Shown: positions 1 through 36,710 of the stretch, in pieces
Layout: the number at the start of each line of letters is the position of its first letter
How positions within the stretch are numbered: position 1 is the stretch's first letter
Source of the DNA: an uncultured virus (IMG/VR IMGVR_UViG_3300044712_001838)
Taxonomy: Duplodnaviria > Heunggongvirae > Uroviricota > Caudoviricetes
Virus record (IMG/VR): IMGVR_UViG_3300044712_001838
Reading direction: 5' to 3' (one strand)
DNA length: 36,710 nucleotides
The notes under the pieces: generated by a model
What the model was told of the DNA's origin: nothing
The model's database searches: none
What the model saw: only the letters and a program-made list of their open reading frames with translations
Position numbers and translations under genes: made by a program

Positions 1-1
1 C

Positions 2-73
2 CGCCTGTCCGCCAAGGGCGCGCAGATCGTCTCCAAGTACATCAACGCGGTTCCGTCGCCTGTAAACGCCTAG
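2..73 (+). CDS. 3' end of a gene entering the window (…YINAVPSPVNA)
   Basis: Open frame from the window edge to TAG at 71-73, followed by a terminator-like hairpin. Confidence 0.6.
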   Translation, partial: RLSAKGAQIVSKYINAVPSPVNA

Positions 74-91
74 CGGCGTCGGGGGCGGTCA

Positions 92-131
92 GAGGGGGCG
101 GCTCGCGGGAGCCGCTCCCTCATTCTTCTTT
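92..131 (+). terminator. probable rho-independent terminator
   Basis: Stem AGGGGGCGGCTC/GAGCCGCTCCCT followed by a pyrimidine/T-rich tail. Confidence 0.6.
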
Positions 132-143
132 GGGAGACAAGCT

Positions 144-470
144 ATGAAATGCCCCAAATGCGGTTGCGAAATTGACACCGAGGACGAGCACAAGTACGAG
201 CCGTCCAAGGACCAAATTGCGGACTTGCCGCCTTCGATCAAACAGCGATTCCTTCCCTACGACTCATGTACGCCTGCCGGAAAGCCGTACAAGGCTCCGC
301 CGCGCTTCCTTCAGTACTCAGACGACCATCTCAACGATTGGAACTTTACGCATCCGATCAAAGCCGAAGAGGACGGCTCCGTCTGGATGGTTCGGACATA
401 CAGCCCTACCTTCAACTCCAAGCGAAACTGCGGCGGCTACGACGTTATCTACTGCCGCAAAACCAAGTAA
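144..470 (+). CDS. hypothetical protein, N-terminal CxxC
   Basis: GGGAG RBS, ATG, 108 aa. Confidence 0.7.
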   Translation: MKCPKCGCEIDTEDEHKYEPSKDQIADLPPSIKQRFLPYDSCTPAGKPYKAPPRFLQYSDDHLNDWNFTHPIKAEEDGSVWMVRTYSPTFNSKRNCGGYDVIYCRKTK

Positions 471-485
471 GTGTCAAAAACGCCG

Positions 486-510
486 TTAGGACTCTGTTAG
501 GAGCAGGCGA
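486..510 (+). promoter_or_regulatory. 25-bp element copy 1
   Basis: TTAGGactctgTTAGGAGCAGGCGA; ATG 7 nt downstream (518). Confidence 0.85.
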
Positions 511-517
511 AGAAACC

Positions 518-724
518 ATGAACAGAAACGCGAACCCTCAACTGCTGAATCTCTTGCGCATGGGTTGCAAGGTTGAATTCCCTACCGGAGCATGGCTTCG
601 GGGAGACAAGGGCTACATCAAAGTCGGCAGCGAGCAACGCGGAGAACTTGGTGCTTGGTCTCTTGACCGCGAGGGGCTTCGCAACGCCATGTCCGACAAG
701 GACTTGTGGGCAGGTAACGATTGA
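518..724 (+). CDS. hypothetical protein (possibly leaderless)
   Basis: ATG at fixed offset from element; 68 aa. Confidence 0.7.
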   Translation: MNRNANPQLLNLLRMGCKVEFPTGAWLRGDKGYIKVGSEQRGELGAWSLDREGLRNAMSDKDLWAGND

Positions 725-731
725 GGAAGCC

Positions 732-932
732 ATGAAAAACCCGAATTGCGACAACATCCATTGCACCAAAGCCAACGGGGAAGTCCGCTTGCTGCCGACC
801 GGAGGCGACGGCAATATGATCGTCTGCCGTTCCTGTTACGAGCACGAAATGGCGTTCCGCCGCTCGTTCAGCAAGAGAGGGGTTAAACCCGATCTCCCGA
901 GTTGGGAGTCGCTCAAAGTCTACGAAGGGTAA
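732..932 (+). CDS. small Cys-rich hypothetical protein
   Basis: GAGG RBS; NPNCDNIHC…CRSC. Confidence 0.7.
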   Translation: MKNPNCDNIHCTKANGEVRLLPTGGDGNMIVCRSCYEHEMAFRRSFSKRGVKPDLPSWESLKVYEG

Positions 933-946
933 CAGTGCAACACTTA

Positions 947-971
947 TTAGGCTTCCGTTAGGAGCAGACGA
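947..971 (+). promoter_or_regulatory. 25-bp element copy 2
   Basis: TTAGGcttccgTTAGGAGCAGACGA; ATG 7 nt downstream (979). Confidence 0.85.
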
Positions 972-978
972 GATAAAC

Positions 979-1359
979 ATGATCAAGGTTCAATACTCGC
1001 TGGCAGACCTGTCGTCTGCTGGACCGCAGATTGAGAATGCATGCTTGAAGTCGGGCATGAGTATTGAAGAGGTCCCTGGCGGTTTGATTGCCCTACCAGG
1101 GAAAGGAACGAGTCAGTTTCCGCTGGTGCAAGGGGAGAGATGGGTCAATGTGTCAACTTCCATCGAATCCTACCTCTTCCTTGCCCGCTACTTGGCAATC
1201 ATGTCCGTTCTCGACGTCGCCTGCAAGCTTGGCGTCCTTGAGGACATCCTTGACGAAGGGGGGTTCTGGCGAAAAAGGGATCTGGACGCGCTGGTCGCTT
1301 TCAAAGAGACCTTGCAAAGTGTTCCAGATCCGCGAGAAACACGCCCGTTCATGTCGTAG
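979..1359 (+). CDS. hypothetical protein
   Basis: 126-aa ORF directly after element. Confidence 0.7.
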   Translation: MIKVQYSLADLSSAGPQIENACLKSGMSIEEVPGGLIALPGKGTSQFPLVQGERWVNVSTSIESYLFLARYLAIMSVLDVACKLGVLEDILDEGGFWRKRDLDALVAFKETLQSVPDPRETRPFMS

Positions 1360-1507: not shown

Positions 1508-2326
1508 ATGAACGGAAGCAGCGAACAGAACAACGCGACCGAAGTCGCCAGCAACCCCGCGCCGGAAGCGACCGCCGCGCAGACCGAAACCACTCAGACC
1601 GCGACGACCGCGCCCTCGGGCAAGGTGACGCATAGCCAGATCGCCAGCAAGCTCGGCATCGACCGCTCGATTGTCACCCGCGTCCTGAACGGCAAGAGCA
1701 ACAGCCCCAAGAAAGAACTGATCCTCGCGACCGCCGCCGAAATGGGCTACGTCGCCCCCATCGCCAGCGAGCAGGCGACCGCCAGCCAGCCCGAAGCGGC
1801 TCCCGAAGTCGCCGCGCAGACGGAAAACGCCGTCCCCGAAAACGCCGTCGCGGCTGACACCGCCCCCGAAGCGTCGACCGAAGTCGCCGCCCCGAAGGCG
1901 AAGCCCAAGAGCAAGGGCAAGAAGACCGCCAAGAAGGCGAAAGCCAAGAAGTTCCCGCACGCCGCCCCGCGTATGATGGTCAACGCCGACATTCTGGCGA
2001 AGATCGAAGCGCATCCCGCCGATCTCCGCGAGAAGCTCAACGAGGCGCGGCAGGAAGAAGTCCAGACGCGCGGCTCCGGCGACGTTGACGACGCGACGGC
2101 TCGCTTGCTCTACAAGCTGGTCCATGACGACCGCATCAAGCCGGAAGCCAAGCTGGCGTACCGCGAAATGGAACCCATCTTCCATCTCAAGCGCAACAAC
2201 GGCATGTGCGCCTACCGCATCGTCGGCAAGATCGAAGCCGAACTGAAGCGCAAGGCTCGCCAGAAAGCCGCCGAAGCCCGCGCCGAAGCCAAGAAGGTCG
2301 AAGCTCCCGAAACGGTTAACGCCTAA
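1508..2326 (+). CDS. LacI-type HTH DNA-binding protein with Ala/Glu/Pro linker and Lys-rich segment
   Basis: VTHSQIASKLGIDRSIVTRVLNG…ILATAAEMGY resembles the LacI N-terminal HTH; GGAGGGAG RBS; own promoter and terminator. Confidence 0.75.
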   Translation: MNGSSEQNNATEVASNPAPEATAAQTETTQTATTAPSGKVTHSQIASKLGIDRSIVTRVLNGKSNSPKKELILATAAEMGYVAPIASEQATASQPEAAPEVAAQTENAVPENAVAADTAPEASTEVAAPKAKPKSKGKKTAKKAKAKKFPHAAPRMMVNADILAKIEAHPADLREKLNEARQEEVQTRGSGDVDDATARLLYKLVHDDRIKPEAKLAYREMEPIFHLKRNNGMCAYRIVGKIEAELKRKARQKAAEARAEAKKVEAPETVNA

Positions 2327-2518: not shown

Positions 2519-2543
2519 TTAGGCTTCCATTAGGAGCAGGCGG
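2519..2543 (+). promoter_or_regulatory. 25-bp element copy 3
   Basis: TTAGGcttccaTTAGGAGCAGGCGG. Confidence 0.85.
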
Positions 2544-2568
2544 GCAAGGTGGGATAAGGGAGATGACC

Positions 2569-2874
2569 ATGAATTTGAAAGAACATGAAGTTCCGCATAG
2601 TCGGGAAACATTCGGAGGCGACGAACGAGCGATCAATCGTCACAGCCAGAGACAGTACAAAGTCCCAGGGCACGATCCGATCATCTACATTGACCGGAAC
2701 AACAGCGGATGCCCGCCCTTCTACAAATTGTTTTACTTCAATCCAGGCGCTACCCTTGCAACAACCATTCAGGTCGACGGAAAGGAATATTGGGGCGACG
2801 GGTTAAGCTGGCCCAAAGCCATCGCCAAGGCAAGTGAAACGATCAGTCGCCTGCTCGAAACGGGCGGGGAATGA
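2569..2874 (+). CDS. hypothetical protein
   Basis: AAGGGAG RBS; start 2569 (or 2563). Confidence 0.7.
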   Translation: MNLKEHEVPHSRETFGGDERAINRHSQRQYKVPGHDPIIYIDRNNSGCPPFYKLFYFNPGATLATTIQVDGKEYWGDGLSWPKAIAKASETISRLLETGGE

Positions 2875-2876
2875 CA

Positions 2877-2901
2877 TTAGGTCTCCGTTAGGAGCAGGCG
2901 A
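2877..2901 (+). promoter_or_regulatory. 25-bp element copy 4
   Basis: TTAGGtctccgTTAGGAGCAGGCGA; ATG 7 nt downstream (2909). Confidence 0.85.
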
Positions 2902-2908
2902 CACGATC

Positions 2909-3130
2909 ATGGAAAAGAAAATTCGTATCTACGGCAAGCCGCTTTTGATCAAAAGGGTCAATGGTCAATTCTCTTGGAGGCTCGCCCTGTTCCAAGGGAA
3001 GGCGACCTTCTCCAACCATATCCTGCAAAGCGCAGAAGATGTCGTCCTCGAATCCTACGAGGAAGCAAACAAAGACATGAAGGTAATGGCGAAACAGTTG
3101 AAAATCATCCTGCCTCGGCGGAAGCGTTAG
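2909..3130 (+). CDS. hypothetical protein
   Basis: Starts at fixed offset; stop TAG supplied by the next element. Confidence 0.7.
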   Translation: MEKKIRIYGKPLLIKRVNGQFSWRLALFQGKATFSNHILQSAEDVVLESYEEANKDMKVMAKQLKIILPRRKR

Positions 3131-3151
3131 GCTCCCGTTAGGAGCAGGCGA
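3127..3151 (+). promoter_or_regulatory. 25-bp element copy 5
   Basis: TTAGGctcccgTTAGGAGCAGGCGA. Confidence 0.85.
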
Positions 3152-3173
3152 CTAAATCAAAGGAGAGGACCCC

Positions 3174-3961: not shown

Positions 3962-4436
3962 CTGCGTCACCCTCTTCCACGTCTCTACCGCCGCCAAGCG
4001 CGCGAAGATCCTCAAAGAGGGAATCCAGCCCAACAAGCGACCCTGCTGGACCAACGTCTTCGGTCGCCCGCTCAGGGAGAAAGACACCGTCTACGCTTTC
4101 GCCAGCTTCGACGACGCCGCCAGATGGGCTTTCAAACATCAGTTCGACGCGCAAAAACCCTGCGACATCTTCGCCTTCCAATCCGACCCCTGCTTCTGGA
4201 AGGATGACACCCATCCCGAAGCCAGCCTCGGCAAGGGCAAATGGCTCAAGAGCAAAAACGCCGTCCCGGCTCGCGCGATCAAGCATTGTCTGCCCTTCGA
4301 TCCCAACAAGTTCGGTCCACTGCTGGTCCAAACGTTGGGAGACCCCAAAGAGATCCTTCCTGACGGCAGAGTCATCGCCGTCGATAAGACCAAAATCCTG
4401 ATCATCGGCTTCTCGCCGGATTGGGTCAACTGTTAG
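3948..4436 (+). CDS. putative ADP-ribosyltransferase-fold (Tpt1/KptA-like) protein
   Basis: LFHVS…ILKEGIQP, VYAF and VPARAI motifs; AAGGA RBS. Confidence 0.5.
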   Translation: MSLADCVTLFHVSTAAKRAKILKEGIQPNKRPCWTNVFGRPLREKDTVYAFASFDDAARWAFKHQFDAQKPCDIFAFQSDPCFWKDDTHPEASLGKGKWLKSKNAVPARAIKHCLPFDPNKFGPLLVQTLGDPKEILPDGRVIAVDKTKILIIGFSPDWVNC

Positions 4437-4457
4437 GCTTCCGTTAGGAGCAGGCGA
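4433..4457 (+). promoter_or_regulatory. 25-bp element copy 6
   Basis: TTAGGcttccgTTAGGAGCAGGCGA. Confidence 0.85.
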
Positions 4458-4476
4458 CGGGGTAAAGGAGAACCGC

Positions 4477-4746
4477 ATGTCCAAACTCAAATGCCCTCAT
4501 TGCAAAGGTCGCGGTAAACTGACCATTACCTCCGTCCATATCAGCGCGAAGGGACGATCAGCCCCCGAAAAGACGGAGATCAACTGCGTTACCTGCGACG
4601 GGAAGAAAACGGTCTCCAAAGAACAGAAAGCCGCCTGGAACCGCTACCTCGCGTCCTGGTGCAAATGCAAAAAGCCTGGTACCGCCCTGTCCGACGGACG
4701 CGACTGGTACTGCTCCAAGTGCCGCAAACTGGTCCAGCAGGGTTAG
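4477..4746 (+). CDS. DnaJ-type CxxCxGxG zinc-finger protein
   Basis: CPHCKGRG, CVTCDGKK, further CxC and CxxC; AGGAG RBS. Confidence 0.7.
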   Translation: MSKLKCPHCKGRGKLTITSVHISAKGRSAPEKTEINCVTCDGKKTVSKEQKAAWNRYLASWCKCKKPGTALSDGRDWYCSKCRKLVQQG

Positions 4747-4767
4747 GCTTCTGCTAGGAGCAGGCGA
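4743..4767 (+). promoter_or_regulatory. 25-bp element copy 7
   Basis: TTAGGcttctgCTAGGAGCAGGCGA. Confidence 0.85.
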
Positions 4768-4787
4768 CTGAGCTAAGGAGATCGACC

Positions 4788-4982: not shown

Positions 4983-5132
4983 ATGTCCCGCGAAGTGACA
5001 CTCAAACTCGACAAGTTCGCGGCGGGGAAGCAGAAAAAGGACCCCCAAGGCGCCATTCAACCACAAGCCCTACTGAACGGAAAGCACACCAAATCCTTCA
5101 ACATCGGAAAACGCCGACAGTCATTTAGGTAA
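4983..5132 (+). CDS. small hypothetical protein (49 aa, not in ORF track)
   Basis: AGGAG RBS; MSREVTLKLDK…; stop lies inside the next element. Confidence 0.55.
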   Translation: MSREVTLKLDKFAAGKQKKDPQGAIQPQALLNGKHTKSFNIGKRRQSFR

Positions 5133-5149
5133 CCGTTAGGAGCAGGCGA
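5125..5149 (+). promoter_or_regulatory. 25-bp element copy 8
   Basis: TTAGGtaaccgTTAGGAGCAGGCGA; ATG 7 nt downstream (5157). Confidence 0.85.
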
Positions 5150-5156
5150 CCAGATC

Positions 5157-5540
5157 ATGGAAAAGACTAACTTCGACGATCGTGCCTATATCGTTTGCGC
5201 CCTTTGGTCCACCCTCGACGGCTCAACCCCGAGCGGCGGATATCCCCTGGACAAGAACTACAGCCCCGCTGATATCGATCAGGCGACGCTTACGCAAATG
5301 GTTGCCGATTGCAAGGACTTCCAAGATTCGAACACCGAAGCCCTCGTCGAAGCTTGCGCCCAGGGCGGAGATCCGGAACGAAACGGTCATGACTTCTGGC
5401 TGACCCGCAACCGCCATGGCGTCGGCTTTTGGGATCGCGGGTACCAAGGCGAATTCGTCCGCCACCTCGTCGATAACGCGCACGCCTACGGCAGCTACGA
5501 TCTCTACGTTGGAGACGATAAGAAGATCCATGGAAACTGA
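5157..5540 (+). CDS. conserved phage hypothetical protein (GHDFWLTRNxHGxGFWDR family)
   Basis: Motif GHDFWLTRNRHGVGFWDRG recalled from phage proteins of unknown function. Confidence 0.8.
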   Translation: MEKTNFDDRAYIVCALWSTLDGSTPSGGYPLDKNYSPADIDQATLTQMVADCKDFQDSNTEALVEACAQGGDPERNGHDFWLTRNRHGVGFWDRGYQGEFVRHLVDNAHAYGSYDLYVGDDKKIHGN

Positions 5541-5553: not shown

Positions 5554-6096
5554 ATGACAGCCACTGAGACGTCCTCGAAGATCATCCAATTGGTCTCTCG
5601 TCCCGAGCAGGCGACGCTTGTTCTGGACCCCGAGGACCTGATTCTCGCCTACAGAGCCGGACGCGAGTCCATGAACAGCTTCCTCTCCGGCAAAGGCGAC
5701 CTTCCCTGCCAGTTCTCACACCCGCTTCAAAAGCAGGAATGGCTCCGGGCTCGGCGCGACGTCCTCGACCAAGTACTTTGGAAGGCGACGGATGATGGCT
5801 GCCAGCACGCGTTGTTTGGAGATCACCCCGGTGTTAAGTACTCCGGCAAACTGAAGGAAGCCTGGGACAAGGGCGTCCGGCGCGGAGAAAGTGTCATCGC
5901 CAAGACCGAACCCAAGGAACTCGCTTGGATGCGCGGCTGGCATGCTGGTGCCTACTCCGAAGGTCTGCCCGATAACCCCTACGAAGAAACGCCTCTTGCA
6001 ATTCACTGGCTCAAGGGGTATGATGCCGGATTGAGTACAATCGAAGCCCTGGCTTCACGCGAGAATGTCGCCAGAAAGGTCAGGGAAGCCTGTTAG
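5554..6096 (+). CDS. protein with tandem RMF/CrpP-like repeats
   Basis: AYRAG…CQF…EWLRARRD and AWMRGWHAG…NPY…HWLKGYDAG; GGGAG RBS. Confidence 0.6.
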   Translation: MTATETSSKIIQLVSRPEQATLVLDPEDLILAYRAGRESMNSFLSGKGDLPCQFSHPLQKQEWLRARRDVLDQVLWKATDDGCQHALFGDHPGVKYSGKLKEAWDKGVRRGESVIAKTEPKELAWMRGWHAGAYSEGLPDNPYEETPLAIHWLKGYDAGLSTIEALASRENVARKVREAC

Positions 6097-6117
6097 GCTT
6101 TCTTTAGGAGCAGGCGA
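6093..6117 (+). promoter_or_regulatory. 25-bp element copy 9
   Basis: TTAGGctttctTTAGGAGCAGGCGA. Confidence 0.85.
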
Positions 6118-6157
6118 TCCGGTCGGGAGAAAGACCGCAGCCAAAAGGAACCTCAGA

Positions 6158-29183: not shown

Positions 29184-29189
29184 GAGGAA

Positions 29190-29501
29190 TTATTTGATTT
29201 CCGTGATGACAACCGTAAACGGTCCAGCCTTGACCTGTTTTCGCAATTCCTCAATCTCGACCGAGTCCAACTCTACCCAAGGTGTAAGCTTCAGTTTAGG
29301 GTCGTTGTAGACCGTTAGCTGGACCCATTTCTTTGGGATTTGGTAGCCATTCTCTTTTAGGACTTTCTCGGACGGAGTAAACGTCCCGAACTTCATCCGC
29401 TTACGGGCAGTACTGACCGCCGTTAGCACGAGCGTCAGGATGATTACAGAAAGGGCGCAACCGACTTTGAATTCCATGTGCCCGCGCATATCATTCTCCA
29501 A
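29190..29501 (-). CDS. hypothetical membrane-anchored protein
   Basis: Hydrophobic segment ALSVIILTLVLTAV. Confidence 0.6.
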   Translation of the reverse strand: MENDMRGHMEFKVGCALSVIILTLVLTAVSTARKRMKFGTFTPSEKVLKENGYQIPKKWVQLTVYNDPKLKLTPWVELDSVEIEELRKQVKAGPFTVVITEIK

Positions 29502-29757
29502 GCTTCTCTTTGACTTCGTACATAAGCTGCAAAAACGTCAAAAAGTCAACTTTCCCGCACTTGCCCTTGATGCCGCCGATTTCTTCCCCGTACAACGCCA
29601 GACGTTTGAAGTCGTCCTTACTGGTGCCATCAAATATAGCGCGCAGAAGAGCTACCTTTGTAACGATGTCCTTATCCTCGCGCAACATTTGGGCAAGTTC
29701 GTTCAAAGACAGGGTAACAACGGCATCGACGGAAACGGTCTTCTTGATCTCGATCAT
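29491..29757 (-). CDS. hypothetical protein
   Basis: ATGA-coupled. Confidence 0.65.
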   Translation of the reverse strand: MIEIKKTVSVDAVVTLSLNELAQMLREDKDIVTKVALLRAIFDGTSKDDFKRLALYGEEIGGIKGKCGKVDFLTFLQLMYEVKEKLGE

Positions 29758-30083
29758 TGTACGCGTGCCCTTTTTCTGTTCGCGGCTGTCCGTTTGATCT
29801 CGATCCAGTCACAATAGTTATTGAAGATTTCGACAGACATCCGCATTTGGTCGCCTACCTTGACGTCATCACGAAAGGAGGCGACGACGCGAAGGATGTA
29901 AGTCTTGTACGGTTCGCCAAAGTCTTCTACTATCTCAAGCCCGCAAGTCTCCCAAATGGCGGCTTCGGGCAAGATGGTTCGGTGCCAACGGATACCGTCC
30001 CTAATGTTGATTTCTAAGGGCGACGTCGTCTGCATGCCATCCTTGACCATGCAAAGCTTGAAAAGTCTGATTTTGGGCGGCAT
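29754..30083 (-). CDS. hypothetical protein
   Basis: GAGGA RBS before MPPKIR. Confidence 0.65.
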   Translation of the reverse strand: MPPKIRLFKLCMVKDGMQTTSPLEINIRDGIRWHRTILPEAAIWETCGLEIVEDFGEPYKTYILRVVASFRDDVKVGDQMRMSVEIFNNYCDWIEIKRTAANRKRARVQ

Positions 30084-30119
30084 AGCTTTCCTCACAGTAT
30101 AACAACGCCCCACTGTACT

Positions 30120-31187
30120 TTACTTCAACGTTTTCGGGGGATCAGCCGGAAGAACGACGATTTCCGTTTGGAAAGACTTGTGAACAACGGACGGCGTCTT
30201 TAACCGTTCAAAGATGACATGCCCGAAGTCCGGAACGAGGAAGTCGCCTTCGGGGGTGCTGCTGAACAGACCGACCTTCATGTCGTAATCTAGGTCAAGG
30301 TCAACCTGTTTGTACTTAACGACGCTGATCTGCGTCGAGAAGTTGCTCGCGTAGGCGACCTGAGGCTGAGAAATGAACAGCTTGGTAATCCATCCTCTGA
30401 CTTCCGTCTGGTGTCCGGAACCGCAACTCTCCAACCAGAACATCTTTTTCCAGAACGCCGCGTTCTCAATGTTCTCCGCAACCTCTTTCAAAAGCTTCAA
30501 TACTTCCTGCGACCAGGTGCCGACAGGGACGACCTCGGAGAGCTTCTCCCAATTGAAGGCGACCTTGAGCCAGTCCTCTCGCGTCCCCCTGACGTCGATG
30601 CACGGAATGTCGCAGAGGAACATGCCGTAGTTGTAGTATGGGCTGCACAAGTCGGCGAAGGCGCACTGCATGGCGTGCTGGCTGCTTGGGGTTGAAGTCG
30701 AGAACTGCGGCATGAAGACGGAAGATTCGGTCGGGACGAGGCTGGTCAGCATGTCAACCAGTTTGTCCATGGGCATTTCGACGATGCTGCTGCTCTGGAC
30801 AAGGATTGTTTGCTTCTTGTCAGAGGTTGAGAAGAGGCTGCGGTACTTCTCGGCATTCCCCTTGACGACGGAGGCGATCTCCGTAAGGAGCATGTACCAG
30901 ACGATGTCGGGGGTAATGACCGCCCCAAGGTGCTGCGCCCAGCAAGTATTGAGGTAGCTCAAATAGTTCTTTTGAGCAACAGGTCCGATACTGATGACGC
31001 GGGTTTGGAGTGGCGTCGTCGTTATGGTCGAGTAGTCCGATCCGTAATCCGACGAGCTTTCGAGCAGTCCGTCGACCAGTTGTTTGACAGGATCTTGGGG
31101 AACGTTTTCGTAACCCTTTCCGACCTTCTCGTATTTGGTCGGCTTCCTGTAGGTGCCAACTTTGATGTCTGACAGTTTCAGCTTCAT
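30120..31187 (-). CDS. DUF4419-family protein
   Basis: H…TPDIVW…NAEKYR, FSTST, YYNY…CDIP…GTREDW, GWI motifs. Confidence 0.75.
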   Translation of the reverse strand: MKLKLSDIKVGTYRKPTKYEKVGKGYENVPQDPVKQLVDGLLESSSDYGSDYSTITTTPLQTRVISIGPVAQKNYLSYLNTCWAQHLGAVITPDIVWYMLLTEIASVVKGNAEKYRSLFSTSDKKQTILVQSSSIVEMPMDKLVDMLTSLVPTESSVFMPQFSTSTPSSQHAMQCAFADLCSPYYNYGMFLCDIPCIDVRGTREDWLKVAFNWEKLSEVVPVGTWSQEVLKLLKEVAENIENAAFWKKMFWLESCGSGHQTEVRGWITKLFISQPQVAYASNFSTQISVVKYKQVDLDLDYDMKVGLFSSTPEGDFLVPDFGHVIFERLKTPSVVHKSFQTEIVVLPADPPKTLK

Positions 31188-31196
31188 GCTTTCTCC

Positions 31197-31463
31197 TTAG
31201 AGTTCGTCTTCCGGAACGGTCTCGAAATTTTCAGTATGGTAGCCCCAACGGACACTGCCGCCCTTAGCGACAACGATGCAATGATCTGGCATGTTCTCGA
31301 TCTCTCCCAAGAACAGAACATGCTCCCCGTCTTCAAACGGGTACTGACCTGCAAGCGTCGGGGTAGGGAGAACAAACTTGACTACCGAGTTCGGTGCTGG
31401 CTTTCTTTCAAGCTTACCCGTTTTCTTCGCCACTTTTTGCTCCTGTTTGCGTTCTAGCGTCAA
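31197..31463 (-). CDS. phage hypothetical protein
   Basis: FLGEIENMPDHCIV…GYHTENF; start uncertain. Confidence 0.7.
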   Translation of the reverse strand: MTLERKQEQKVAKKTGKLERKPAPNSVVKFVLPTPTLAGQYPFEDGEHVLFLGEIENMPDHCIVVAKGGSVRWGYHTENFETVPEDEL

Positions 31464-31683
31464 GCCATTTTTGGTATTTCTTCCGTGCGCGCTCTATCCA
31501 TGGATGGTCATTAGTATAGGGCATCGCCTTAGGCGGCAGCACGTACAAGGTACACTTTTGGTAAAACTTCCAATCGCCGACTAGGCAAACTTCCCAATCG
31601 AGAGTGTAACAGTCTTTCATAACCAGTATGGAAAGTGGTCCGATGGACTTATCGCACATCCCGTTGAACAAGGATTTGTTCAT
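31414..31683 (-). CDS. hypothetical protein
   Basis: ATGA-coupled start. Confidence 0.55.
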   Translation of the reverse strand: MNKSLFNGMCDKSIGPLSILVMKDCYTLDWEVCLVGDWKFYQKCTLYVLPPKAMPYTNDHPWIERARKKYQKWLDARTQTGAKSGEENG

Positions 31684-31940
31684 TCTATGGGTCCTAGATG
31701 ACTGGAGGTACGAAAGAACGCCCCTAGCTCGAACGGCCATTCCTTCTTTTCGCAAGCCTCCGCCAACGTACGCAGCTTCTCGGCTAGTTGTCGCCTGCGT
31801 TCGGGGTATTTGGTCAGCCAGTGCGGTACGGTTCCAGGGATGTTGAACCACATCTCATCCTCGCAACCTTCCGGCAAGAGGATCTTGACAAGTAAGTCAT
31901 CGCCTTCGAGAGTAAAGTTGCCTTTGTCGTCAAGTTTCAT
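31680..31940 (-). CDS. hypothetical protein
   Basis: Abutting ORF. Confidence 0.65.
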   Translation of the reverse strand: MKLDDKGNFTLEGDDLLVKILLPEGCEDEMWFNIPGTVPHWLTKYPERRRQLAEKLRTLAEACEKKEWPFELGAFFRTSSHLGPIE

Positions 31941-32279
31941 TTACATTACCTGAGTAAGTTCTTCTTTGGAAAGATGGATGATGTCACCGTCGTTCAAGTG
32001 CTCAACGGCTTCGAGAACATCTTGGCACGCCAAGTATTGCTTTCCGTACATGAAACTCCATGACTCCGCCCAAGGGTCCAACTCGACTGTCGCAGGAATG
32101 GCGGGCTTGTATCGGAACAACCATGCAAGAAATCGGTGCCTTCTAATCCAATTGTTACGGACGGTTGCCGCCTCGTGTCTTGCTTGTCTCTCAGCACGAA
32201 GGCGCGATAGGTCAATGCTCTTGATATGGGCTTTGGCATTTCTCCGAACGACGCCGACCGCGACTGGAATCTGGCTCAT
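31941..32279 (-). CDS. hypothetical protein
   Basis: ATGA-coupled. Confidence 0.65.
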   Translation of the reverse strand: MSQIPVAVGVVRRNAKAHIKSIDLSRLRAERQARHEAATVRNNWIRRHRFLAWLFRYKPAIPATVELDPWAESWSFMYGKQYLACQDVLEAVEHLNDGDIIHLSKEELTQVM

Positions 32280-32818
32280 TTTAGCAAACCAGCCTTCTTG
32301 AGGACATCCAAGGCTCTTTCAAGCTGATCACCCGTCACATGAATGCGAAGATCGTAGTCGTCGTTCAGCAGACGTTCGTCGAAAGAGATGTCAACGCTAC
32401 CATAGGTCTTCTGAAGATCCTCAATGATCTTGCGTTTGCGTTTGGCGTTACGATCTACCTTAGTGCGCCTTTCGGCGCTCTCGTTGTTCGCCTTGGTTGT
32501 ATCAAGTATACATTGGGCGATGGCTTTGTAGTCGAGTCCGGTCGCCTTCTTGGTCTTAAAGACCTTCTTGCGGTTCGGCCAAGCGTCGATACTGACGTAG
32601 ACGTGCTCCATGTCGTAGTTGTACGACGTCCGCCAACCCGTATTGAGGAACTCGATGGAGACGCGCGGGCTTCTATCGTCATCTTCAATAATGACGGAGT
32701 CATGATAAATCCGGGGATCGCCGGACTTGACCGCTTGGGCCTTGGCGCCCAACTCGACCAAGGCTGCTACGATCTTGGCGGCGACCAGATTCTGGATTTT
32801 GACGTGATCTAAAATCAT
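32276..32818 (-). CDS. hypothetical protein
   Basis: GAGGGG RBS; first gene after a promoter. Confidence 0.75.
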   Translation of the reverse strand: MILDHVKIQNLVAAKIVAALVELGAKAQAVKSGDPRIYHDSVIIEDDDRSPRVSIEFLNTGWRTSYNYDMEHVYVSIDAWPNRKKVFKTKKATGLDYKAIAQCILDTTKANNESAERRTKVDRNAKRKRKIIEDLQKTYGSVDISFDERLLNDDYDLRIHVTGDQLERALDVLKKAGLLK

Positions 32819-32837
32819 CTCGACCCCTCTTCACTCA

Positions 32838-32866
32838 AGAATACCATGTCGGACGGTCTGAGTCAA
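32838..32866 (-). promoter_or_regulatory. sigma70-like promoter
   Basis: TTGACT-N17-TATTCT with TG extension. Confidence 0.65.
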
Positions 32867-32878
32867 GCAGGATTTAGC

Positions 32879-33301
32879 TTACGCCAAAAACTCTTCCGTT
32901 GGTACCAGTCTAGTCAACTTAATGGCTCTGGCTCCCATGGTACCAGGCGGCGGTCTGCGGTGAGCCAAATTTGTCAAATCATCTGTCTTCAATACTGAAT
33001 CAGGGTCTTTCCAAAAAGCGACAACTACGTTTGGGGAATCCCAGTCTCGGGCACAAACCCGAAGCGGTTGCGGATCGCACGCTTCGCATTCAAAGACGCT
33101 CGTACGATGACACAGGCTCCGTTCGAAGGCGACTGCGCAAACAAGTGTCTGGAATACAAACAGACGACTGCCCGGAATGGTTGGTCGTACCCATTTACCA
33201 AGCCTGTACTTTACGGAAGTCAGGCTATGGAGCGAGGACAGGAAGGTTTCAGGATCGCCAGCGCACGACCTTACGACCTTGTAGAACTTTTCCCTTGGCA
33301 T
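32879..33301 (-). CDS. hypothetical protein paralogous to the C-terminus of 20477-21280
   Basis: WVRPTIPGSRLFVF…PPPGTMGARAIKL. Confidence 0.7.
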   Translation of the reverse strand: MPREKFYKVVRSCAGDPETFLSSLHSLTSVKYRLGKWVRPTIPGSRLFVFQTLVCAVAFERSLCHRTSVFECEACDPQPLRVCARDWDSPNVVVAFWKDPDSVLKTDDLTNLAHRRPPPGTMGARAIKLTRLVPTEEFLA

Positions 33302-33308
33302 GATTCCC

Positions 33309-33830
33309 TCAACCGAGCGTTATCTGGTATTGACAGAACAGCAAGTCTTGAGTCCGCCAATCGGTTCCATCCGATTGCCATAGAAGCATCAAGGGACCTT
33401 GGTAAACCTCTTTATAGTCCTTTGTCGCGAATGCTTGTGCTGCTTCGAGCGTATTGAATGGCTTCGTCCAGGATTCTTTGATAGAGCCTTGGCTGTGCAT
33501 TGGACCGCCAAGCTCAGAGAGATCCAAGCGCGTCAATTGGTAGATCGGAGAGCACTTGCGAAGCATTTCCATTGCGACGCGAACCAATGGCGTCGGGATG
33601 TTGCATTTTTCCCACCAAGCACTCGGTCGGAGCTTCATGTTACAGCTAATCTGGTATCCGCCGTCAGGGTCGCCTTTTAGGAACGGCAAGTCGCCTTTAT
33701 GAATAGAGATGCCAATGACGGGCCAGTGCTTGCCAGTTGGGGCAAAGTGGCGCGCGAACAAGGCGTAGGGCGACTGGCAATACTCCTTGTACTTGCTTTT
33801 GCTGGTATCAATCTCTTTCCATTCCGTCAT
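33309..33830 (-). CDS. hypothetical protein
   Basis: GGAGG RBS. Confidence 0.7.
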   Translation of the reverse strand: MTEWKEIDTSKSKYKEYCQSPYALFARHFAPTGKHWPVIGISIHKGDLPFLKGDPDGGYQISCNMKLRPSAWWEKCNIPTPLVRVAMEMLRKCSPIYQLTRLDLSELGGPMHSQGSIKESWTKPFNTLEAAQAFATKDYKEVYQGPLMLLWQSDGTDWRTQDLLFCQYQITLG

Positions 33831-33967
33831 TTCTTCCTCCGGACAAACGACTTGACGACGGCGTCAATCTCTTCCTTGGTTAGCCGATGCTGGAAATGGC
33901 AAGCGAGGAAGAAGCCCTTATTCCTCGCGTGCTTGAGAAAAGCCCTGACGACTTGTGGCTTGGTCAT
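33827..33967 (-). CDS. small hypothetical protein (46 aa)
   Basis: AAGGA RBS; ATGA overlaps at both ends. Confidence 0.6.
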   Translation of the reverse strand: MTKPQVVRAFLKHARNKGFFLACHFQHRLTKEEIDAVVKSFVRRKK

Positions 33968-34188
33968 TTGCTTTCCTTTTGGGGCGATTGGACGGTTTGG
34001 ATTTTAATGCCCCCGCCGCAATGGGAACATACGAGCTTGAAGCCATTCAAATCCCACCCAAAGCCGCGATGACACATGGTTTTGTACGTTACGTACGAAT
34101 CCAGAGCATTTTGCGACTCCTCTTCAAGCGCAAGCTTAAAATCTTCTTTCCCGCACTTCTCGCAACAAACTTTCGTTATGTACTTCAT
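33964..34188 (-). CDS. zinc-ribbon protein
   Basis: CEKCG…CSHCG. Confidence 0.7.
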   Translation of the reverse strand: MKYITKVCCEKCGKEDFKLALEEESQNALDSYVTYKTMCHRGFGWDLNGFKLVCSHCGGGIKIQTVQSPQKESK

Positions 34189-34847
34189 TCGCTTTCCTTA
34201 CGTTCCAGTGCCTCAATGGAGACCTTTTGCGTCAATTTGTCAAGAATCGCATTCAAGTCTTTCTCAACGTTTGACACGGACTTGCGAATCTCGCCGATAC
34301 GCTCTTCTGCCGTCTTCAGGATACGCTGCTTGGCGATCGCGAGGGCTTTCTGGCGGTCAATGACCTTGAAGAACCCTGTTGGATAGCCGCTGTCCGACTC
34401 GGACTCCAACTTAAATACAGGCTCTTCGAAAAGCTTGGGTTCTACTGAATGAAGCCTATCGACGGGAACTATGCGCCGGATGCCGTAATAGGTCTCGCCT
34501 TCCGATTTGCGGACAGACGTTACGAAGGCGACGTCAAGCTCGTCTTCCGACACTGCAAAGTCTTGGAACATGAGGACGAAGTCGCCCAACGCGGCTGGAA
34601 CAAGCTCAGAGATAGCACGGATGCTTACGCAATCGAACTGGTCGTCGAGGGAGAACTGCTTGCGGAAAGTTTCTTCAAGATCGCCCTTTCCATACCAAAG
34701 CTCTACGATCCGACTAAGCTCGTTAAAGGGAACTTGAAAATAGAGCATCCTGCCATCGCCGACAACCTCGATCTCGCACTTGCTGACCTTGGTCGCCTGC
34801 ACGAAAGCTTCTTGCATGGCTTTGATCTGTTTGGGTGTCAGTTTCAT
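34185..34847 (-). CDS. hypothetical protein with C-terminal coiled coil
   Basis: GGGAAGG RBS before MKLTPKQ. Confidence 0.7.
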   Translation of the reverse strand: MKLTPKQIKAMQEAFVQATKVSKCEIEVVGDGRMLYFQVPFNELSRIVELWYGKGDLEETFRKQFSLDDQFDCVSIRAISELVPAALGDFVLMFQDFAVSEDELDVAFVTSVRKSEGETYYGIRRIVPVDRLHSVEPKLFEEPVFKLESESDSGYPTGFFKVIDRQKALAIAKQRILKTAEERIGEIRKSVSNVEKDLNAILDKLTQKVSIEALERKESE

Positions 34848-34993
34848 CCTTCCCTTTCGCGTCTTATCTGGTACTGTTCTACTTCGCATTCCCGCAAGAC
34901 TTTGTAGGCGGCTTTCCAAGACGTATAGTCGCCTTCCTCTCCGGCTTGCACGATCTTCCAATGACCGTTGATGAAATCGACGTTATAGGTCAT
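34844..34993 (-). CDS. small hypothetical protein
   Basis: MTYNVDFINGHW…; coupled. Confidence 0.55.
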   Translation of the reverse strand: MTYNVDFINGHWKIVQAGEEGDYTSWKAAYKVLRECEVEQYQIRREREG

Positions 34994-35339
34994 TGGGCAA
35001 ATCCGAAAGAACGTACATGGCGTAGGCAATCCGAATCAATCGGTCCTTGGGCGTGAAGATGCGGAGTACGCCATCCTGCTCATCGTCAAATACTTTCGGG
35101 GCGATTCCGTCAACAATCCGGACAGCGGCGACGCGAAGAGCTTGTCCGCGAAGTTCGTCGAATCCGAATTCCTCGAAGACCCTTTTCCAGAATTGATCTT
35201 CAGTCCCGCTGGAAGTATAACGTCCGAAATGAATGCTTCGGATCAGACCGGCCAAAGAACGTTTCTTCCTCTCAGGCGACAGCGGCATTGTCGAAGGCGG
35301 GAATTCAGCGACTGCCGGTGCTACGAGTTCTTTGCTCAT
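34983..35339 (-). CDS. hypothetical protein
   Basis: AAGGA RBS. Confidence 0.7.
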   Translation of the reverse strand: MSKELVAPAVAEFPPSTMPLSPERKKRSLAGLIRSIHFGRYTSSGTEDQFWKRVFEEFGFDELRGQALRVAAVRIVDGIAPKVFDDEQDGVLRIFTPKDRLIRIAYAMYVLSDLPNDL

Positions 35340-35348
35340 GGCTGTTCC

Positions 35349-35627
35349 TTATGGGACGTTGTACTTGACCAAGTTGTTCGGTATGAGGCTGAACGTGCCG
35401 CCAGGATAGACGATGATGTCGTATAGCCCTGCATAGCAAATCGTCAGCGGCTGCGACGTCTCCCGCGCCTTCTTGTATGTTTCGCGGATGTTCTCAACAA
35501 GGTCTTGCCAACTGTCCGGACCAACACCGTTATTGCCAACCTCAGCAACCAAATGCGAGATATGCAAACGCTGCCCTTCGTCAGCAGGCGACAACAAGCC
35601 TTCTTCGTGCGTCATGACGACCTCCAT
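35349..35627 (-). CDS. hypothetical protein
   Basis: ORF after a promoter; start 35627 or 35615. Confidence 0.7.
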   Translation of the reverse strand: MEVVMTHEEGLLSPADEGQRLHISHLVAEVGNNGVGPDSWQDLVENIRETYKKARETSQPLTICYAGLYDIIVYPGGTFSLIPNNLVKYNVP

Positions 35628-35635
35628 CGAAGTTC

Positions 35636-35663
35636 ACTATATGTCAAGAAACACCAGAGTCAA
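35636..35663 (-). promoter_or_regulatory. sigma70-like promoter
   Basis: TTGACT-N16-TATAGT. Confidence 0.6.
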
Positions 35664-35814
35664 GAAATTTCGGGGCGATCTTTGTCTTCTGATGCTTGCC
35701 GCACCAGGGGCAGAACCATGCCTTCTTTTGACGAGGAGCGTCGCCAATGGACCACCATTTCCTGCACTTGCCGCATTGAAAATGGACAAGTCGCTCGACT
35801 GAGTAGGAATGCAT
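35644..35814 (-). CDS. small zinc-ribbon protein
   Basis: HFQCGKCRKWWS…FCPWCG. Confidence 0.65.
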   Translation of the reverse strand: MHSYSVERLVHFQCGKCRKWWSIGDAPRQKKAWFCPWCGKHQKTKIAPKFLDSGVS

Positions 35815-35819
35815 TGGGT

Positions 35820-36467
35820 TTATGCCAAGAAGGCGGGGCGATCTTTGCCTGTCAGTGCCTTGTATTCGTCCAGTAACGCCTGCGGGACGTTCCTTGTCTT
35901 GTGCGCGTCCCAAATGTCAGCTAGGATGTCGTCTATCAACCGAACCTGTCGCTCCGGTTTCGCCGCCGCGCAGGGGCAGAAACATTTCCAATATTCAGCC
36001 GATTCTGAGATCGTATGTTCTGCACCACAAGCACCTACGACTTGGAAGGCGGTCTCGTTCGGGGGTTGTGAGGTAACTCTAGCGATTTTGTAGGTATCGC
36101 CCTTAAAAAAACAAATGCCAATTGTTTCGATGCATTTGATTTCGTCGCCTGCTTTGAGATTTAGCATAGTAACAGGTGCCGCTGGTGCATTCGCAGCGAC
36201 TGGAGAAGTCATGGCAACTTTGATCGTCGTAGGGACCGAATTAGCTGTCTGCGTCTGAGCGGCGAGTTCGAACTTGTCGAGCCAGTCGCCTTCAGAGCAA
36301 GTCGCGACATTCCCGTTCTCGCCATTCATCCAAATTCCGTGACTGGAATGGGGTCCGGCTACCGTGTACTTTTTGCCCTTGGCAAAGTACAGGACTTGGT
36401 TTCTGTCTAAAAGGTCCTCCAAGCAGACCAACTCATCTCCAACTTTGAGGTTCGCAGCTTTTAGCAT
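35820..36467 (-). CDS. 'DAHK' family protein, paralogue 2, with duplicated N-terminal module
   Basis: NLKVGDELVC…FAKGKKYTV and NLKAGDEIKC…FFKGDTYKI; IWDAHK tail. Confidence 0.8.
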   Translation of the reverse strand: MLKAANLKVGDELVCLEDLLDRNQVLYFAKGKKYTVAGPHSSHGIWMNGENGNVATCSEGDWLDKFELAAQTQTANSVPTTIKVAMTSPVAANAPAAPVTMLNLKAGDEIKCIETIGICFFKGDTYKIARVTSQPPNETAFQVVGACGAEHTISESAEYWKCFCPCAAAKPERQVRLIDDILADIWDAHKTRNVPQALLDEYKALTGKDRPAFLA

Positions 36468-36470
36468 TTG

Positions 36471-36710
36471 TCAATCCATGAATGCGGGTTTCGGCTTCCC
36501 CGTCAAGCCCTTGTATTCGTCCAGTAACGCCTGCGACACGCTCTTTGACTTGTGAGCGTCCCAAATCTCGTTCAGGACCATTTCGACGGAACGCGAGCAG
36601 GCGACGGCCGTTTTCTTCGTCGCAACCGCAAATTTCTCCAACCATCCGTCTGAGGGCAAAGAACTAATGTAATACAGGCGACCATTGTCAGCGATGACAG
36701 CGTAGGAAGC
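36471..36710 (-). CDS. 'DAHK' family protein, paralogue 3 (5' part outside window)
   Basis: Frame open to the window edge; VLNEIWDAHK…LLDEYKGLTG…PAF. Confidence 0.75.
   Translation of the reverse strand, partial: ASYAVIADNGRLYYISSLPSDGWLEKFAVATKKTAVACSRSVEMVLNEIWDAHKSKSVSQALLDEYKGLTGKPKPAFMD

Follow-up and report, generated by a model that had tools for sequence, protein, structure and literature searches.

Why should one short, non-palindromic DNA word recur dozens of times, on both strands and mostly inside genes, in a stretch of viral DNA whose open reading frames (ORFs) are nearly all orphans? The stretch concerned is the uncultured-virus record IMG/VR IMGVR_UViG_3300044712_001838 (Caudoviricetes), analysed here over its whole length of 36,710 bases and referred to as the window; it has 54% G+C and is crowded with short ORFs nearly without known relatives. 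The word is the octamer CAGGCGAC (read as GTCGCCTG on the opposite strand), built on the core AGGCGAC, and 49 exact copies were counted over the two strands. Eight of these end a 25–26-bp element found at gene junctions, and the remaining 41 are dispersed, in line with the roughly 40 copies that a preliminary description of this DNA had placed outside the junction elements. That description had also put a second octamer, AAGGCGAC, at about 30 copies, where we count 31, and all eleven example positions it gave are among our 49. Our data show that the word is kept at the nucleic-acid level, by selection or by drive, and we tentatively read it as the dispersed binding site of a DNA-binding protein that the phage-like genome itself would encode.

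Dinucleotide-preserving shuffles of the window (n = 100) gave a mean of 1.63 copies of CAGGCGAC (sd 1.24, largest 5), in agreement with the one or two copies previously predicted from composition. None of the 100 shuffles reached 49, and the excess over chance is about 30-fold. For the core AGGCGAC, 90 copies are present against 6.15 ± 2.38 in the shuffles. Extending the octamers by one base yields 35 copies of GCAGGCGAC and 22 of GAAGGCGAC, hence 57 of G[C/A]AGGCGAC, and the densities per kb are 1.3 for CAGGCGAC, about 1.6 for G-(C/A)-AGGCGAC and 2.5 for the core. Markov models of orders 1, 2 and 3 predict 1.6, 2.1 and 4.8 copies of CAGGCGAC, respectively, and those of orders 4, 5 and 6 predict 11.4, 26.8 and 42.2 (order 6 being maximal). 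The high-order expectations are large because such models take in sub-words of the octamer that are themselves enriched, and their behaviour shows that the signal is already contained in the core AGGCGAC.

Could protein coding generate such an excess? All statements on sense, antisense and intergenic placement, here and below, depend on 69 crude gene calls made by an iterated codon-usage score, which cover 80% of the window and are approximate. By these calls, ORFs contain 29 of the 41 dispersed copies and the other 12 fall outside them, bearing out the earlier remark that copies occur on both strands and within genes; of all CAGGCGAC copies, 31 fall within gene calls (21 sense and 10 antisense). 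Permuting synonymous codons within each gene left 5.8 ± 2.0 of these 31 (largest 14, 1000 shuffles), pooling synonymous codons over genes left 3.8 ± 1.8 (300 shuffles), and permuting codon order left 1.4 ± 1.2. The strictest shuffle, which keeps the proteins, the codon usage and all dinucleotides including those at codon junctions, gave 5.0 ± 2.0 (largest 11, n = 500). Under the same shuffle the core fell to 15.4 ± 3.4 in genes against 64 observed, and AAGGCGAC to 8.1 against 25, 3-fold below the observed number. When all 6-, 7- and 8-mers were compared with synonymous shuffles, the word and its sub-words ranked top (z 10–12). The preliminary description would have been refuted by an enrichment that vanished under a codon- or dipeptide-preserving shuffle, and this did not happen.

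The reading-frame distribution, also proposed earlier as a check, places the word in all six frames. In sense orientation CAGGCGAC encodes (in one-letter code) Q-A-T 8 times, A/P-G-D 10 times and R-R 3 times, and in antisense orientation V-A-C 5 times, S-P 3 times and R-L twice; the most frequent Arg-Arg codon pair is AGG-CGA, both members of which are minor codons (5 in the window, 0.73 expected). The second octamer, AAGGCGAC, is more frame-bound (K/E-G-D 12, K-A-T 4, antisense V-A-F/L 7). Two codon pairs are favoured in the window, GGC-GAC (35 against 16.5 expected) and GTC-GCC (32 against 17.2), and part of the AAGGCGAC excess is due to them. Together with the maximal-order Markov expectation of 42.2, which absorbs most of the excess, these preferences are what would speak for an origin as a by-product of codon use, of codon-pair preference or of dipeptides that recur (Gly-Asp, Val-Ala). 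Against such an origin stand the strictest shuffle, the spread over six frames that encode unrelated peptides, the 12 dispersed copies outside ORFs and the circularity of the high-order Markov models. The coding-preserving shuffles exclude a codon or dipeptide artefact as the main cause, and we give it next to no credence.

The edges of the word are sharp. Directly 5′ of the core (base −1) stands C 49 times, A 31 times, G 6 times and T 4 times; at base −2, G is found in 59 of the 82 copies outside the junction elements. A weak excess of G or C follows directly 3′ of the core, and the flanks hold no other signal. Variants of GCAGGCGAC differing by one base at positions 3–9 occur 0–6 times each, about the background level, and those at position 1 occur 5 (A), 1 (C) and 8 (T) times, so that GAAGGCGAC, the position 2 change with its 22 copies, is the sole substitution clearly over background. 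As the excess survives coding-preserving nulls, occupies all six frames, has sharp edges and leaves one-mismatch relatives nearly absent, the word is a nucleotide-level signal, G-[C/A]-AGGCGAC. The two octamers are not equivalent, a point that adds to the preliminary description, for they differ in strand bias (see below) and in upstream context. The dispersed CAGGCGAC copies (n = 41) show a weak context CnAG...g (22 have A at −2, 21 have C at −4 and 20 have G after the word), while the only context common to the 31 AAGGCGAC copies is a G before the word.

Several conventional roles were considered and rejected. No upstream box was found out to −45 and no position is conserved past −5, the only feature being a period-3 excess of C that reflects codon phase; a promoter with an upstream box and a −35/−10 pair of the extracytoplasmic-function-sigma type were both discarded on this ground. 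Pairing with the 3′ end of 16S rRNA was rejected because the match to that sequence is imperfect. The claim that the word forms the stem of a terminator held for one site, the two-way, terminator-like hairpin at 2363–2386 with arms GGGTCGCC and GGCGACCC. A general terminator role was rejected, since the inverted core pair builds this hairpin only and a few weak terminator-like matches do no more than overlap single copies. Three further inverted pairs (GTCGCCT, 15–22 nt, AGGCGAC) lie in leftward genes at 19679–19710, 25629–25657 and 29850–29885 and could form 7-bp stems; chance alone would, on a rough reckoning, give about one pair of this type.

The word also forms part of a larger unit at gene starts. 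This junction element has the consensus TTAGG-N6-TTAGGAGCAGGCGAC and is present in 15 copies at gene junctions, nine on the plus strand (486–6118) and six on the minus strand (9403–14616), every one of the 15 running in the same direction as the gene downstream of it. Its second TTAGG contains AGGAG, and within its first TTAGG lies the TAG that ends the preceding ORF at 3130, 4436, 4746 and 6096. In seven of the 15 copies an ATG stands exactly 6 nt 3′ of the element, mostly as nnnATCATG; the other eight are followed by a further Shine-Dalgarno-like stretch. The preliminary description had made the word the 3′ end of this element, which is true to the letter in eight of the 15, where the element ends in the exact 9-mer GCAGGCGAC, and not in the other seven, which deviate. 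Since seven ends vary, the element core TTAGGAGCAGGCGA and the dispersed G-[C/A]-AGGCGAC overlap without being identical.

The exact elements on the plus strand are those at 2877..2902 and 5125..5150, each with an ATG 6 nt after it, and those at 3127..3152 (holding the stop of ORF 2834–3130, with its own AAGGAG downstream), 4433..4458 (stop of ORF 3900–4436) and 4743..4768 (stop of ORF 4477–4746); on the minus strand they lie at 9403..9428, 11354..11379 (ATG 6 nt after) and 14177..14202. Variant plus-strand copies are found at 486..511 (TTAGG-N6-TTAGGAGCAGGCGAA, in which the last base of the word differs; ATG 6 nt after), 947..972 (ending GCAGACGAG; ATG 6 nt after), 2519..2544 (ending GCAGGCGGG) and 6093..6118 (ending GCAGGCGAT; stop of ORF 5416–6096). 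Their minus-strand counterparts are at 9836..9861 (ending GCAGGCGAG; ATG 6 nt after), 13338..13363 (also ending GCAGGCGAG) and 14591..14616 (ending GCAGCCGCT; ATG 6 nt after). Pyrimidines prevail in the N6 spacer (CTTCC, CTCC, TTTC), so that base pairing between it and GGAG in the second TTAGGAG is conceivable, which would mask the ribosome-binding site.

Further copies of the element were seen beyond the window. A contig of 31,791 bases from run X1 contains window positions 1–20000 without difference and reaches about 11.7 kb past the left end, and its extension holds, about 8–11 kb left of the window, two further exact matches to the element copies at 2876–2914 and 3127–3167. A separate contig of 5,857 bases resembles an element over 44 bases, 5 of which differ. 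Contig joints falling at element copies (sides of 22–33 nt) were dismissed as repeat cross-matches, not rearrangements.

How, then, are the dispersed copies arranged? In the first 9.5 kb three lie on the plus strand and five on the minus strand. Those on the plus strand are at 1772..1779 (sense in ORF 1508–2326, Q-A-T), 5280..5287 (outside gene calls) and 5608..5615 (sense in ORF 5416–6096, Q-A-T, ending a degenerate element-like stretch at 5590–5615). The minus-strand copies at 1216..1223, 2846..2853 and 6986..6993 are all antisense, reading V-A-C in the plus-strand ORFs 979–1359, 2834–3130 and 6653–7465, respectively, and those at 55..62 and 8869..8876 are outside gene calls. An internal tandem repeat (1775–1898) is also present in ORF 1508–2326. 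Between 9.5 and 15.33 kb the split is 8 plus to 3 minus. Here the plus-strand copies comprise 9601..9608 and 12151..12158 (both outside gene calls), 11158..11165 and 11228..11235 (antisense in the minus-strand ORF 11096–11392, S-P and R-L), 13504..13511 (antisense in the minus-strand ORF 13360–13770, R-L) and three in the plus-strand ORF 14725–15294, namely 14738..14745 (upstream of the ATG at 14782), 14962..14969 (sense, Q-A-T) and 15221..15228 (sense, A-G-D). The minus-strand copies of this region are at 11081..11088 (outside gene calls), 13267..13274 (sense in the minus-strand ORF 12462–13331, Q-A-T) and 14667..14674 (outside gene calls). Four copies fall in a non-coding region at 15.3–16.05 kb, at 15372..15379 and 15613..15620 (plus) and at 15511..15518 and 15810..15817 (minus).

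From 18.2 to 34.8 kb the window is occupied by a long leftward gene array without junction elements, and within the block 18233..34799 the minus strand, here the sense strand, carries all 12 copies of CAGGCGAC (two-sided binomial 0.0005). They encode Q-A-T at 19679..19686, 25629..25636, 27184..27191 and 34792..34799 (which closes the run), A-G-D at 18723..18730, 21194..21201, 23751..23758 and 27970..27977, P-G-D at 27494..27501, and R-R (AGG CGA) at 18233..18240, 24910..24917 and 31790..31797. Two of them have an inverted AAGGCGAC partner, that of 19679 at 19703–19710 and that of 25629 at 25650–25657. The only plus-strand copy at 16.05–35 kb is 16300..16307, antisense in the shikimate-kinase ORF (V-A-C), so that this region holds 12 sense copies to 1 antisense, against 7 to 9 elsewhere (Fisher 0.008). 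At the right end, 35–36.7 kb, four copies are on the plus strand and one on the minus strand: 35273..35280 and 35585..35592 (antisense, S-P, in the minus-strand ORFs 34983–35339 and 35349–35627), 36598..36605 (antisense, V-A-C, in the minus-strand ORF 36471–36659), 36675..36682 (outside gene calls) and 36144..36151 (minus, sense in the minus-strand ORF 35820–36467, A-G-D). Two neighbouring leftward ORFs in this part share a 74-nt direct repeat of 84% identity (35845–35918 and 36496–36569) and are probably paralogues.

The second octamer, AAGGCGAC, starts on the plus strand at 2999, 5693, 5782, 7164, 9792, 14869, 15951, 18883, 19703, 22431, 25650, 26133, 30556, 33126 and 34525 (15 copies), and on the minus strand at 2367, 14451, 15121, 15300, 15759, 17237, 20328, 23896, 25460, 26497, 30243, 32541, 33669, 33690, 34928 and 36285 (16 copies). 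Its strand split in the array differs from that of CAGGCGAC (P 0.045).

Gaps between copies are near exponential (CV 0.91 and 1.05), and one cluster stands out. Thirteen AGGCGAC cores lie within 1.3 kb at 14667..15958, of which the CAGGCGAC at 14667 is the first; uniform placement gives a mean maximum of 8.6 and P(≥13) = 0.0048 (5000 simulations). The cluster covers ORF 14725–15294 and the non-coding region of about 0.7 kb that follows. From its ATG the ORF (14782–15291) gave a low-confidence helical model in the ESM Atlas, with TPR-like matches below TM 0.5. The non-coding region carries 18-bp repeats TTYGRGAAAACGCCGACR in the same orientation at 15340, 15386 and 16047 and a fourth, partial, at 15491, and the interval 15300–16064 also contains ttctaaagagtgcg-type and gttgcgagcggtcgc repeats and A+T-rich patches. 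With this repeat content, 15300–16064 looks like an iteron-type origin or some other control or terminal region.

Strand composition switches at the same place. The minimum of the cumulative GC skew lies within about 15000–16500, and the GC3 skew of leftward genes, taken on their sense strand, goes from +0.21 (8–14.7 kb) to −0.50 (16–22 kb), a flip that transcription direction does not explain. The dispersed CAGGCGAC copies number 8 plus to 3 minus at 9.5–15.33 kb and 1 plus to 12 minus at 16.05–35 kb (Fisher 0.002, with boundaries chosen post hoc), and word orientation follows local GC skew only weakly (r −0.23, P 0.1). Both the orientation block and the cluster at the switch in strand composition are additions to the preliminary description. 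At 15747 (break 15741–15747) a 27.4-kb contig with a depth of 15 comes to its end in run X2, and the next 4 kb are covered by short contigs at a depth of about 5. From this contig end and drop in depth, co-occurring strains appear to diverge at about 15.7 kb, at a module boundary, or else a physical end may lie there; the word's copies do not coincide with the X2 contig breaks. A second iterated word, AAAACGCCG (mostly AAAACGCCGAC), has 13 copies, all on the plus strand (two-sided P 0.0002), against a Markov expectation of 0.5–1.5 copies (orders 1–5). It starts at 477, 1824, 1839, 2326, 4255, 5108, 6552, 6630, 15346, 15392, 15497, 16053 and 19562; several copies sit at junctions just 5′ of the junction element or of a Shine-Dalgarno site, and one is antisense in a leftward gene.

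Is the word found elsewhere? A megablast search of window positions 1–25000 against 50,697 phage records gave no match, nor did a tblastn search of one ORF against the same records, and three ORFs searched for related loci in viral contigs found none. A 322-residue ORF compared with 5.8 billion proteins matched only itself, on contigs of up to 98,710 bases. In viral contigs the 15-mer TTAGGAGCAGGCGAC gave 26 single hits, unrelated and none enriched, and the 5′ part of the junction element gave 33 single hits; the element pattern in Joint Genome Institute (JGI) metagenomes hit a single unrelated contig. Pairs of the 9-mer (GCAGGCGAC-N0-30-GCAGGCGAC) were found at at least 118 loci in viral contigs, the denser of those inspected being local tandem repeats, mostly in G+C-rich contigs; among the loci listed, none matched the window by tblastx. 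With one genome per species (185,579 species), the 9-mer pair occurred at at least 120 loci in many phyla, and none of those listed was enriched in its flanks.

Copies were also counted in whole genomes. The 15-mer was absent from all five further genomes examined, and counts of GCAGGCGAC in five genomes gave no density comparable to that of the window. Larger groups were named from the metagenome-assembled genome (MAG) around which each was drawn, so that the 301 genomes of the class around a Sphingomonas MAG are taken as Alphaproteobacteria (two are flagged unpublished). The maximum for GCAGGCGAC among these 301 was 324 copies in 5.9 Mb, or 0.055 per kb (66 for the reversed-word control), against 0.95 in the window, and the ratio to the reversed control was at most 4.9 in the 5 and 301 genomes, a sample that does not necessarily include the host lineage. 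The looser pair AGCAGGCGAC-N0-200-GCAGGCGAC occurs once in the window, equivalent to about 100 per 4 Mb at the density of the window. Its maxima per genome were 3 in 251 genomes (class around an Enterobacteriaceae MAG), 2 in 221 (phylum around an Acidobacteriaceae MAG) and 9 in 151 (phylum around an actinomycete MAG), those of 3 and 9 being due to tandem repeats; this pair test has power only for densities near that of the window, and the samples comprise about 1 in 100 genomes or fewer. A full-text literature search for the word returned nothing but an oligonucleotide in an archaeal primase paper, unrelated to judge from the title and the start of the abstract. No phage or bacterial genome searched is of comparable density, and to the extent of these searches the word belongs to its lineage alone; a host origin of it is unsupported. 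The earlier suggestion of an iterated signal analogous to HIP1, Chi or uptake sequences holds, over the 36.7 kb of the window, for the statistics (density, six frames, an exact word, nulls survived). No host counterpart was seen in the sampled genomes, which is weak evidence, and neither the binding protein nor the modification system thought possible earlier was detected, the 74 ORFs scanned showing no DNA-binding domain and the window no methyltransferase.

What might the word do? The account we favour, tentatively, is that one sequence-specific DNA-binding protein, the phage-like genome's own, recognizes G-(C/A)-AGGCGAC, in the manner of the asymmetric operator or stoperator sites dispersed in Cluster A mycobacteriophages, or of DnaA boxes. 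It would occupy three kinds of site: the junction elements at gene starts, the cluster at the putative control region of 15.3–16.05 kb, and the many intragenic sites. In the 18–35 kb array, where promoters are of host type, the uniform sense orientation would suit a bound protein that acts on elongating RNA polymerase. What the data show in favour of this account is the excess and its independence of coding, the sharp edges, the word common to the start elements, the one-strand block in an array with sigma-70-like promoters on that strand, the cluster, and the lack of a similar density in the genomes and phage contigs sampled; that a protein binds, that the phage-like genome encodes it and that binding regulates transcription is inferred. 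A number of observations weigh against this account. Seven of the 15 junction elements deviate in the last 1–3 bases of the word or inside it, and such variants are near-absent outside the elements; one-mismatch variants are at background, which is sharper than for most protein sites. The majority of dispersed copies (29 of 41) are intragenic, unlike stoperators, and the density is 3–5 times theirs. Outside the 16–35 kb array there is no sense bias (7 sense, 9 antisense), antisense copies in genes are themselves enriched about 4-fold (10 against 2.3 expected), and AAGGCGAC shows no strand bias at 16.05–35 kb (10 minus, 8 plus). No helix-turn-helix or other DNA-binding domain was detected in 74 ORFs compared with Pfam or in 32 compared with PHROGs; the greater part of the genome lies beyond the window.

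Alternatively, replication direction or the nearest DNA end (about 15.7 kb), and not the genes, could fix the orientation, if the word is a polar signal of replication or genome maintenance read by a DNA-tracking enzyme: Chi-like (RecBCD/AddAB-type), KOPS-like or a lagging-strand priming site. We consider this doubtful, though it would explain a good deal. An exact short word, in all frames and mostly intragenic, has the statistics of Chi, and the strand ratio changes from 8:3 to 1:12 across a locus that has mostly leftward genes on both sides. That flip coincides with the GC3 switch, the cumulative-skew minimum and the non-coding region with its 18-bp repeats and cluster. In a specific form, to which we lend the same limited credence, the signal would be private to the phage, with GTCGCCTG on the leading strand, equivalent to the lagging-strand template, to the left and to the right of an iteron-type origin at 15.3–16.05 kb, flipping with GC3 skew independently of gene direction, and with the one-stranded AAAACGCCGAC marking the same region. 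As a priming site, a DnaG-style start on the template GTCGCCTG would give the primer AGGCGAC, but known primases need only about three bases. The polarity moreover depends on region boundaries picked post hoc and fails in two of five regions (1–9.5 kb and 35–36.7 kb), three of the eight plus-strand copies on the left flank lie in its sole rightward gene, where transcription explains them equally well, the correlation with local GC skew is weak, and AAGGCGAC has no polarity. The low maximum density among the 301 genomes likewise counts against an enzyme-read signal of this type. A rather less probable origin is a HIP1-like by-product of sequence-specific drive (methyltransferase-linked, of mismatch-repair type, or gene conversion templated by the junction element), which would turn near-matches into the exact word and leave it without function of its own. 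Drive would fit the background level of one-mismatch neighbours, the use of all frames even by way of rare codons, the enrichment on both strands at a HIP1-like density and the near-exponential gaps. It predicts neither the one-strand block of 12 nor the 15-kb cluster; four of the 15 elements have kept ends that nearly match the word (GCAGGCGAG/A/T), and no methyltransferase, Vsr-like or recombinase domain was found among the 74 ORFs compared with Pfam.

The word might also act in RNA. A small-RNA seed, an RNA-binding protein or a ribonuclease would then recognize it in 5′ leaders and within the messages of the long array. Its position in the junction element, between AGGAG and the start codon and exactly 6 nt before the ATG in seven of 15, would suit such a target, as would the message-sense orientation of all 12 array copies, and all-or-none edges suit base pairing. 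We nevertheless rate an RNA target as improbable, given that the 10 antisense copies are enriched about 4-fold, that sense copies do not prevail outside the array, that no Rfam family is present in the window and that no complementary non-coding locus was identified. More remote still is a phage that mirrors a host-wide word, be it an uptake sequence or a host Chi. Density and frame use do resemble those of uptake sequences, and the inverted pair that makes a hairpin, with three further pairs at 15–22-nt spacing, would be in character, but the word is built into the phage-like genome's own gene-start cassette, and it is not enriched in the genomes sampled (5, 301, 251, 221 and 151, and at least 120 pair loci). 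Binding by a protein of the phage-like genome is our tentative working account, with the polar signal as its main, though doubtful, competitor.

Among 32 ORFs scanned against PHROGs one matched, to a family of unknown function, and the Pfam scan of 74 ORFs gave two clear matches, a shikimate kinase (16035–16565, minus strand, E 1.6e-31) and a DUF4419 protein (30120–31187, minus strand, E 1.2e-35). Below the curated cut-offs were an ATP-dependent DNA-ligase domain (11393–12055, minus strand), a DnaJ CXXCXGXG domain and DUF6469. The shikimate kinase, the DUF4419 protein and the weak ligase-domain match are set among otherwise orphan ORFs; the best relatives of the shikimate kinase are at most 40% identical and come without taxonomy. 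No hallmark virion gene lies within the window, nor any tRNA gene; we treat the window as a putative piece of a large phage or of something phage-like. Two public rhizosphere metagenome runs (two studies, one possibly the source of the window) contain the DNA almost letter for letter, their contigs carrying positions 1–15747 without listed difference, and none of the sequencing runs listed for it is from RNA.

Expression signals point to a bacterial host, as the window has AAGGAG Shine-Dalgarno-like stretches, sigma-70-like promoters and hairpin-plus-T terminators. A promoter scan of 1–18.5 kb found 14 sigma-70-like promoters where 6.5 ± 2.5 were expected. Near-consensus examples on the minus strand (TTGACA/TTGACT, 16-nt spacer, TATAGT/TATCAT/TAGAAT) are at 17908–17881, 24213–24186, 19848–19821, 35663–35636, 13848–13821, 16038–16011 and 8703–8676, those at 17908 and 24213 having TTGACA-16-TATAGT. 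Four of them (35663, 24213, 19848 and 17908) are on the same strand as the leftward array, which suggests, from motif matches, that the array is transcribed by the host polymerase.

How does the word compare with known systems? Uptake sequences, Chi and HIP1 are words that occur about once per kb in every frame, mainly in bacterial chromosomes. Chi and KOPS are exact asymmetric 8-mers, mostly intragenic, in any frame and in one-orientation blocks, as here; Chi is a property of host genomes, in which it is over-represented with a leading-strand bias and read by RecBCD/AddAB, whereas the present word is several-fold denser than Chi in E. coli and has clear polarity in one block only. The uptake sequences of Neisseria (DUS) and Pasteurellaceae (USS) share the density of about 1 per kb and the use of all frames, and their occasional inverted-pair terminators have a possible counterpart in the hairpin at 2363–2386; they fill host chromosomes, while our word is not enriched in the genomes sampled and is part of a phage-type gene-start cassette. 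HIP1 (GCGATCGC), of unknown function, is likewise a highly iterated octamer at about 1 per kb in and outside genes, irrespective of frame, and the values found here (1.3 for the octamer, 2.5 for the core) are of that order. It is a palindrome of cyanobacterial chromosomes, in contrast to CAGGCGAC, which is not its own reverse complement, forms a strand block and lies on a rhizosphere phage-like contig with Shine-Dalgarno and sigma-70-like signals. DnaA boxes resemble the word in being asymmetric 9-mers that gather where replication is controlled (a candidate region in our case) and that also occur close to gene starts and elsewhere; their sequence is unrelated, the excess here is far higher, and in our case the origin is putative and no initiator was identified.

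Known phage words (stoperators, start-associated sequences and promoters) sit between genes. Cluster K mycobacteriophages have a start-associated sequence (SAS), with an extended form (ESAS), which is a 13-bp asymmetric sequence with AGGAG, 3–7 bp before start codons, in one orientation, sometimes containing the stop of the gene upstream, and of unknown function (PMC3203893). All 15 junction elements resemble it, being conserved and asymmetric, with AGGAG just upstream of starts, a single orientation and, in four, stop overlap. They do not match the SAS consensus GGGATAGGAGCCC, with which only TAGGAGC is in common, and SAS is not scattered inside genes as well, whereas here the 3′ module is iterated alone 41 times. 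Cluster A mycobacteriophages carry more than 20 asymmetric 13-mers genome-wide, bound by a monomeric repressor, which block initiation or elongation in one orientation only relative to transcription and are placed at promoters and in short intergenic spaces (PMC9283540). Like these stoperators (L5 gp71 type), the window has dozens of copies of one asymmetric word (49 of CAGGCGAC, 57 of G[C/A]AGGCGAC), also at gene-control sites, with an apparent tie between orientation and transcription in at least one long array. The differences are that stoperators are intergenic 13-mers at about 0.5 per kb, while the word has 8–9 nt and 1.3–2.5 copies per kb, is enriched on both strands, lies inside ORFs in 29 of 41 cases and has no repressor found for it of the kind that joins a helix-turn-helix to a second DNA-binding domain; the stoperator is thus our nearest working model and not a statement of family membership.

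In practice, the word offers a cheap sequence tag for recognizing relatives of this orphan lineage in metagenomes. Were a binding protein to be found, it and the word would form a compact and very specific protein–DNA pair, by which a phage would mark or control its whole genome in a new manner; a word that proved to be polar with replication would amount to a viral counterpart of Chi or KOPS. Set against the known systems, a non-palindromic 8–9-mer at the density of an uptake sequence, mostly intragenic, in an orphan phage-like element and doubling as a module of its start element, combines two known kinds, the iterated words of phages and the dense, frame-independent words of chromosomes.

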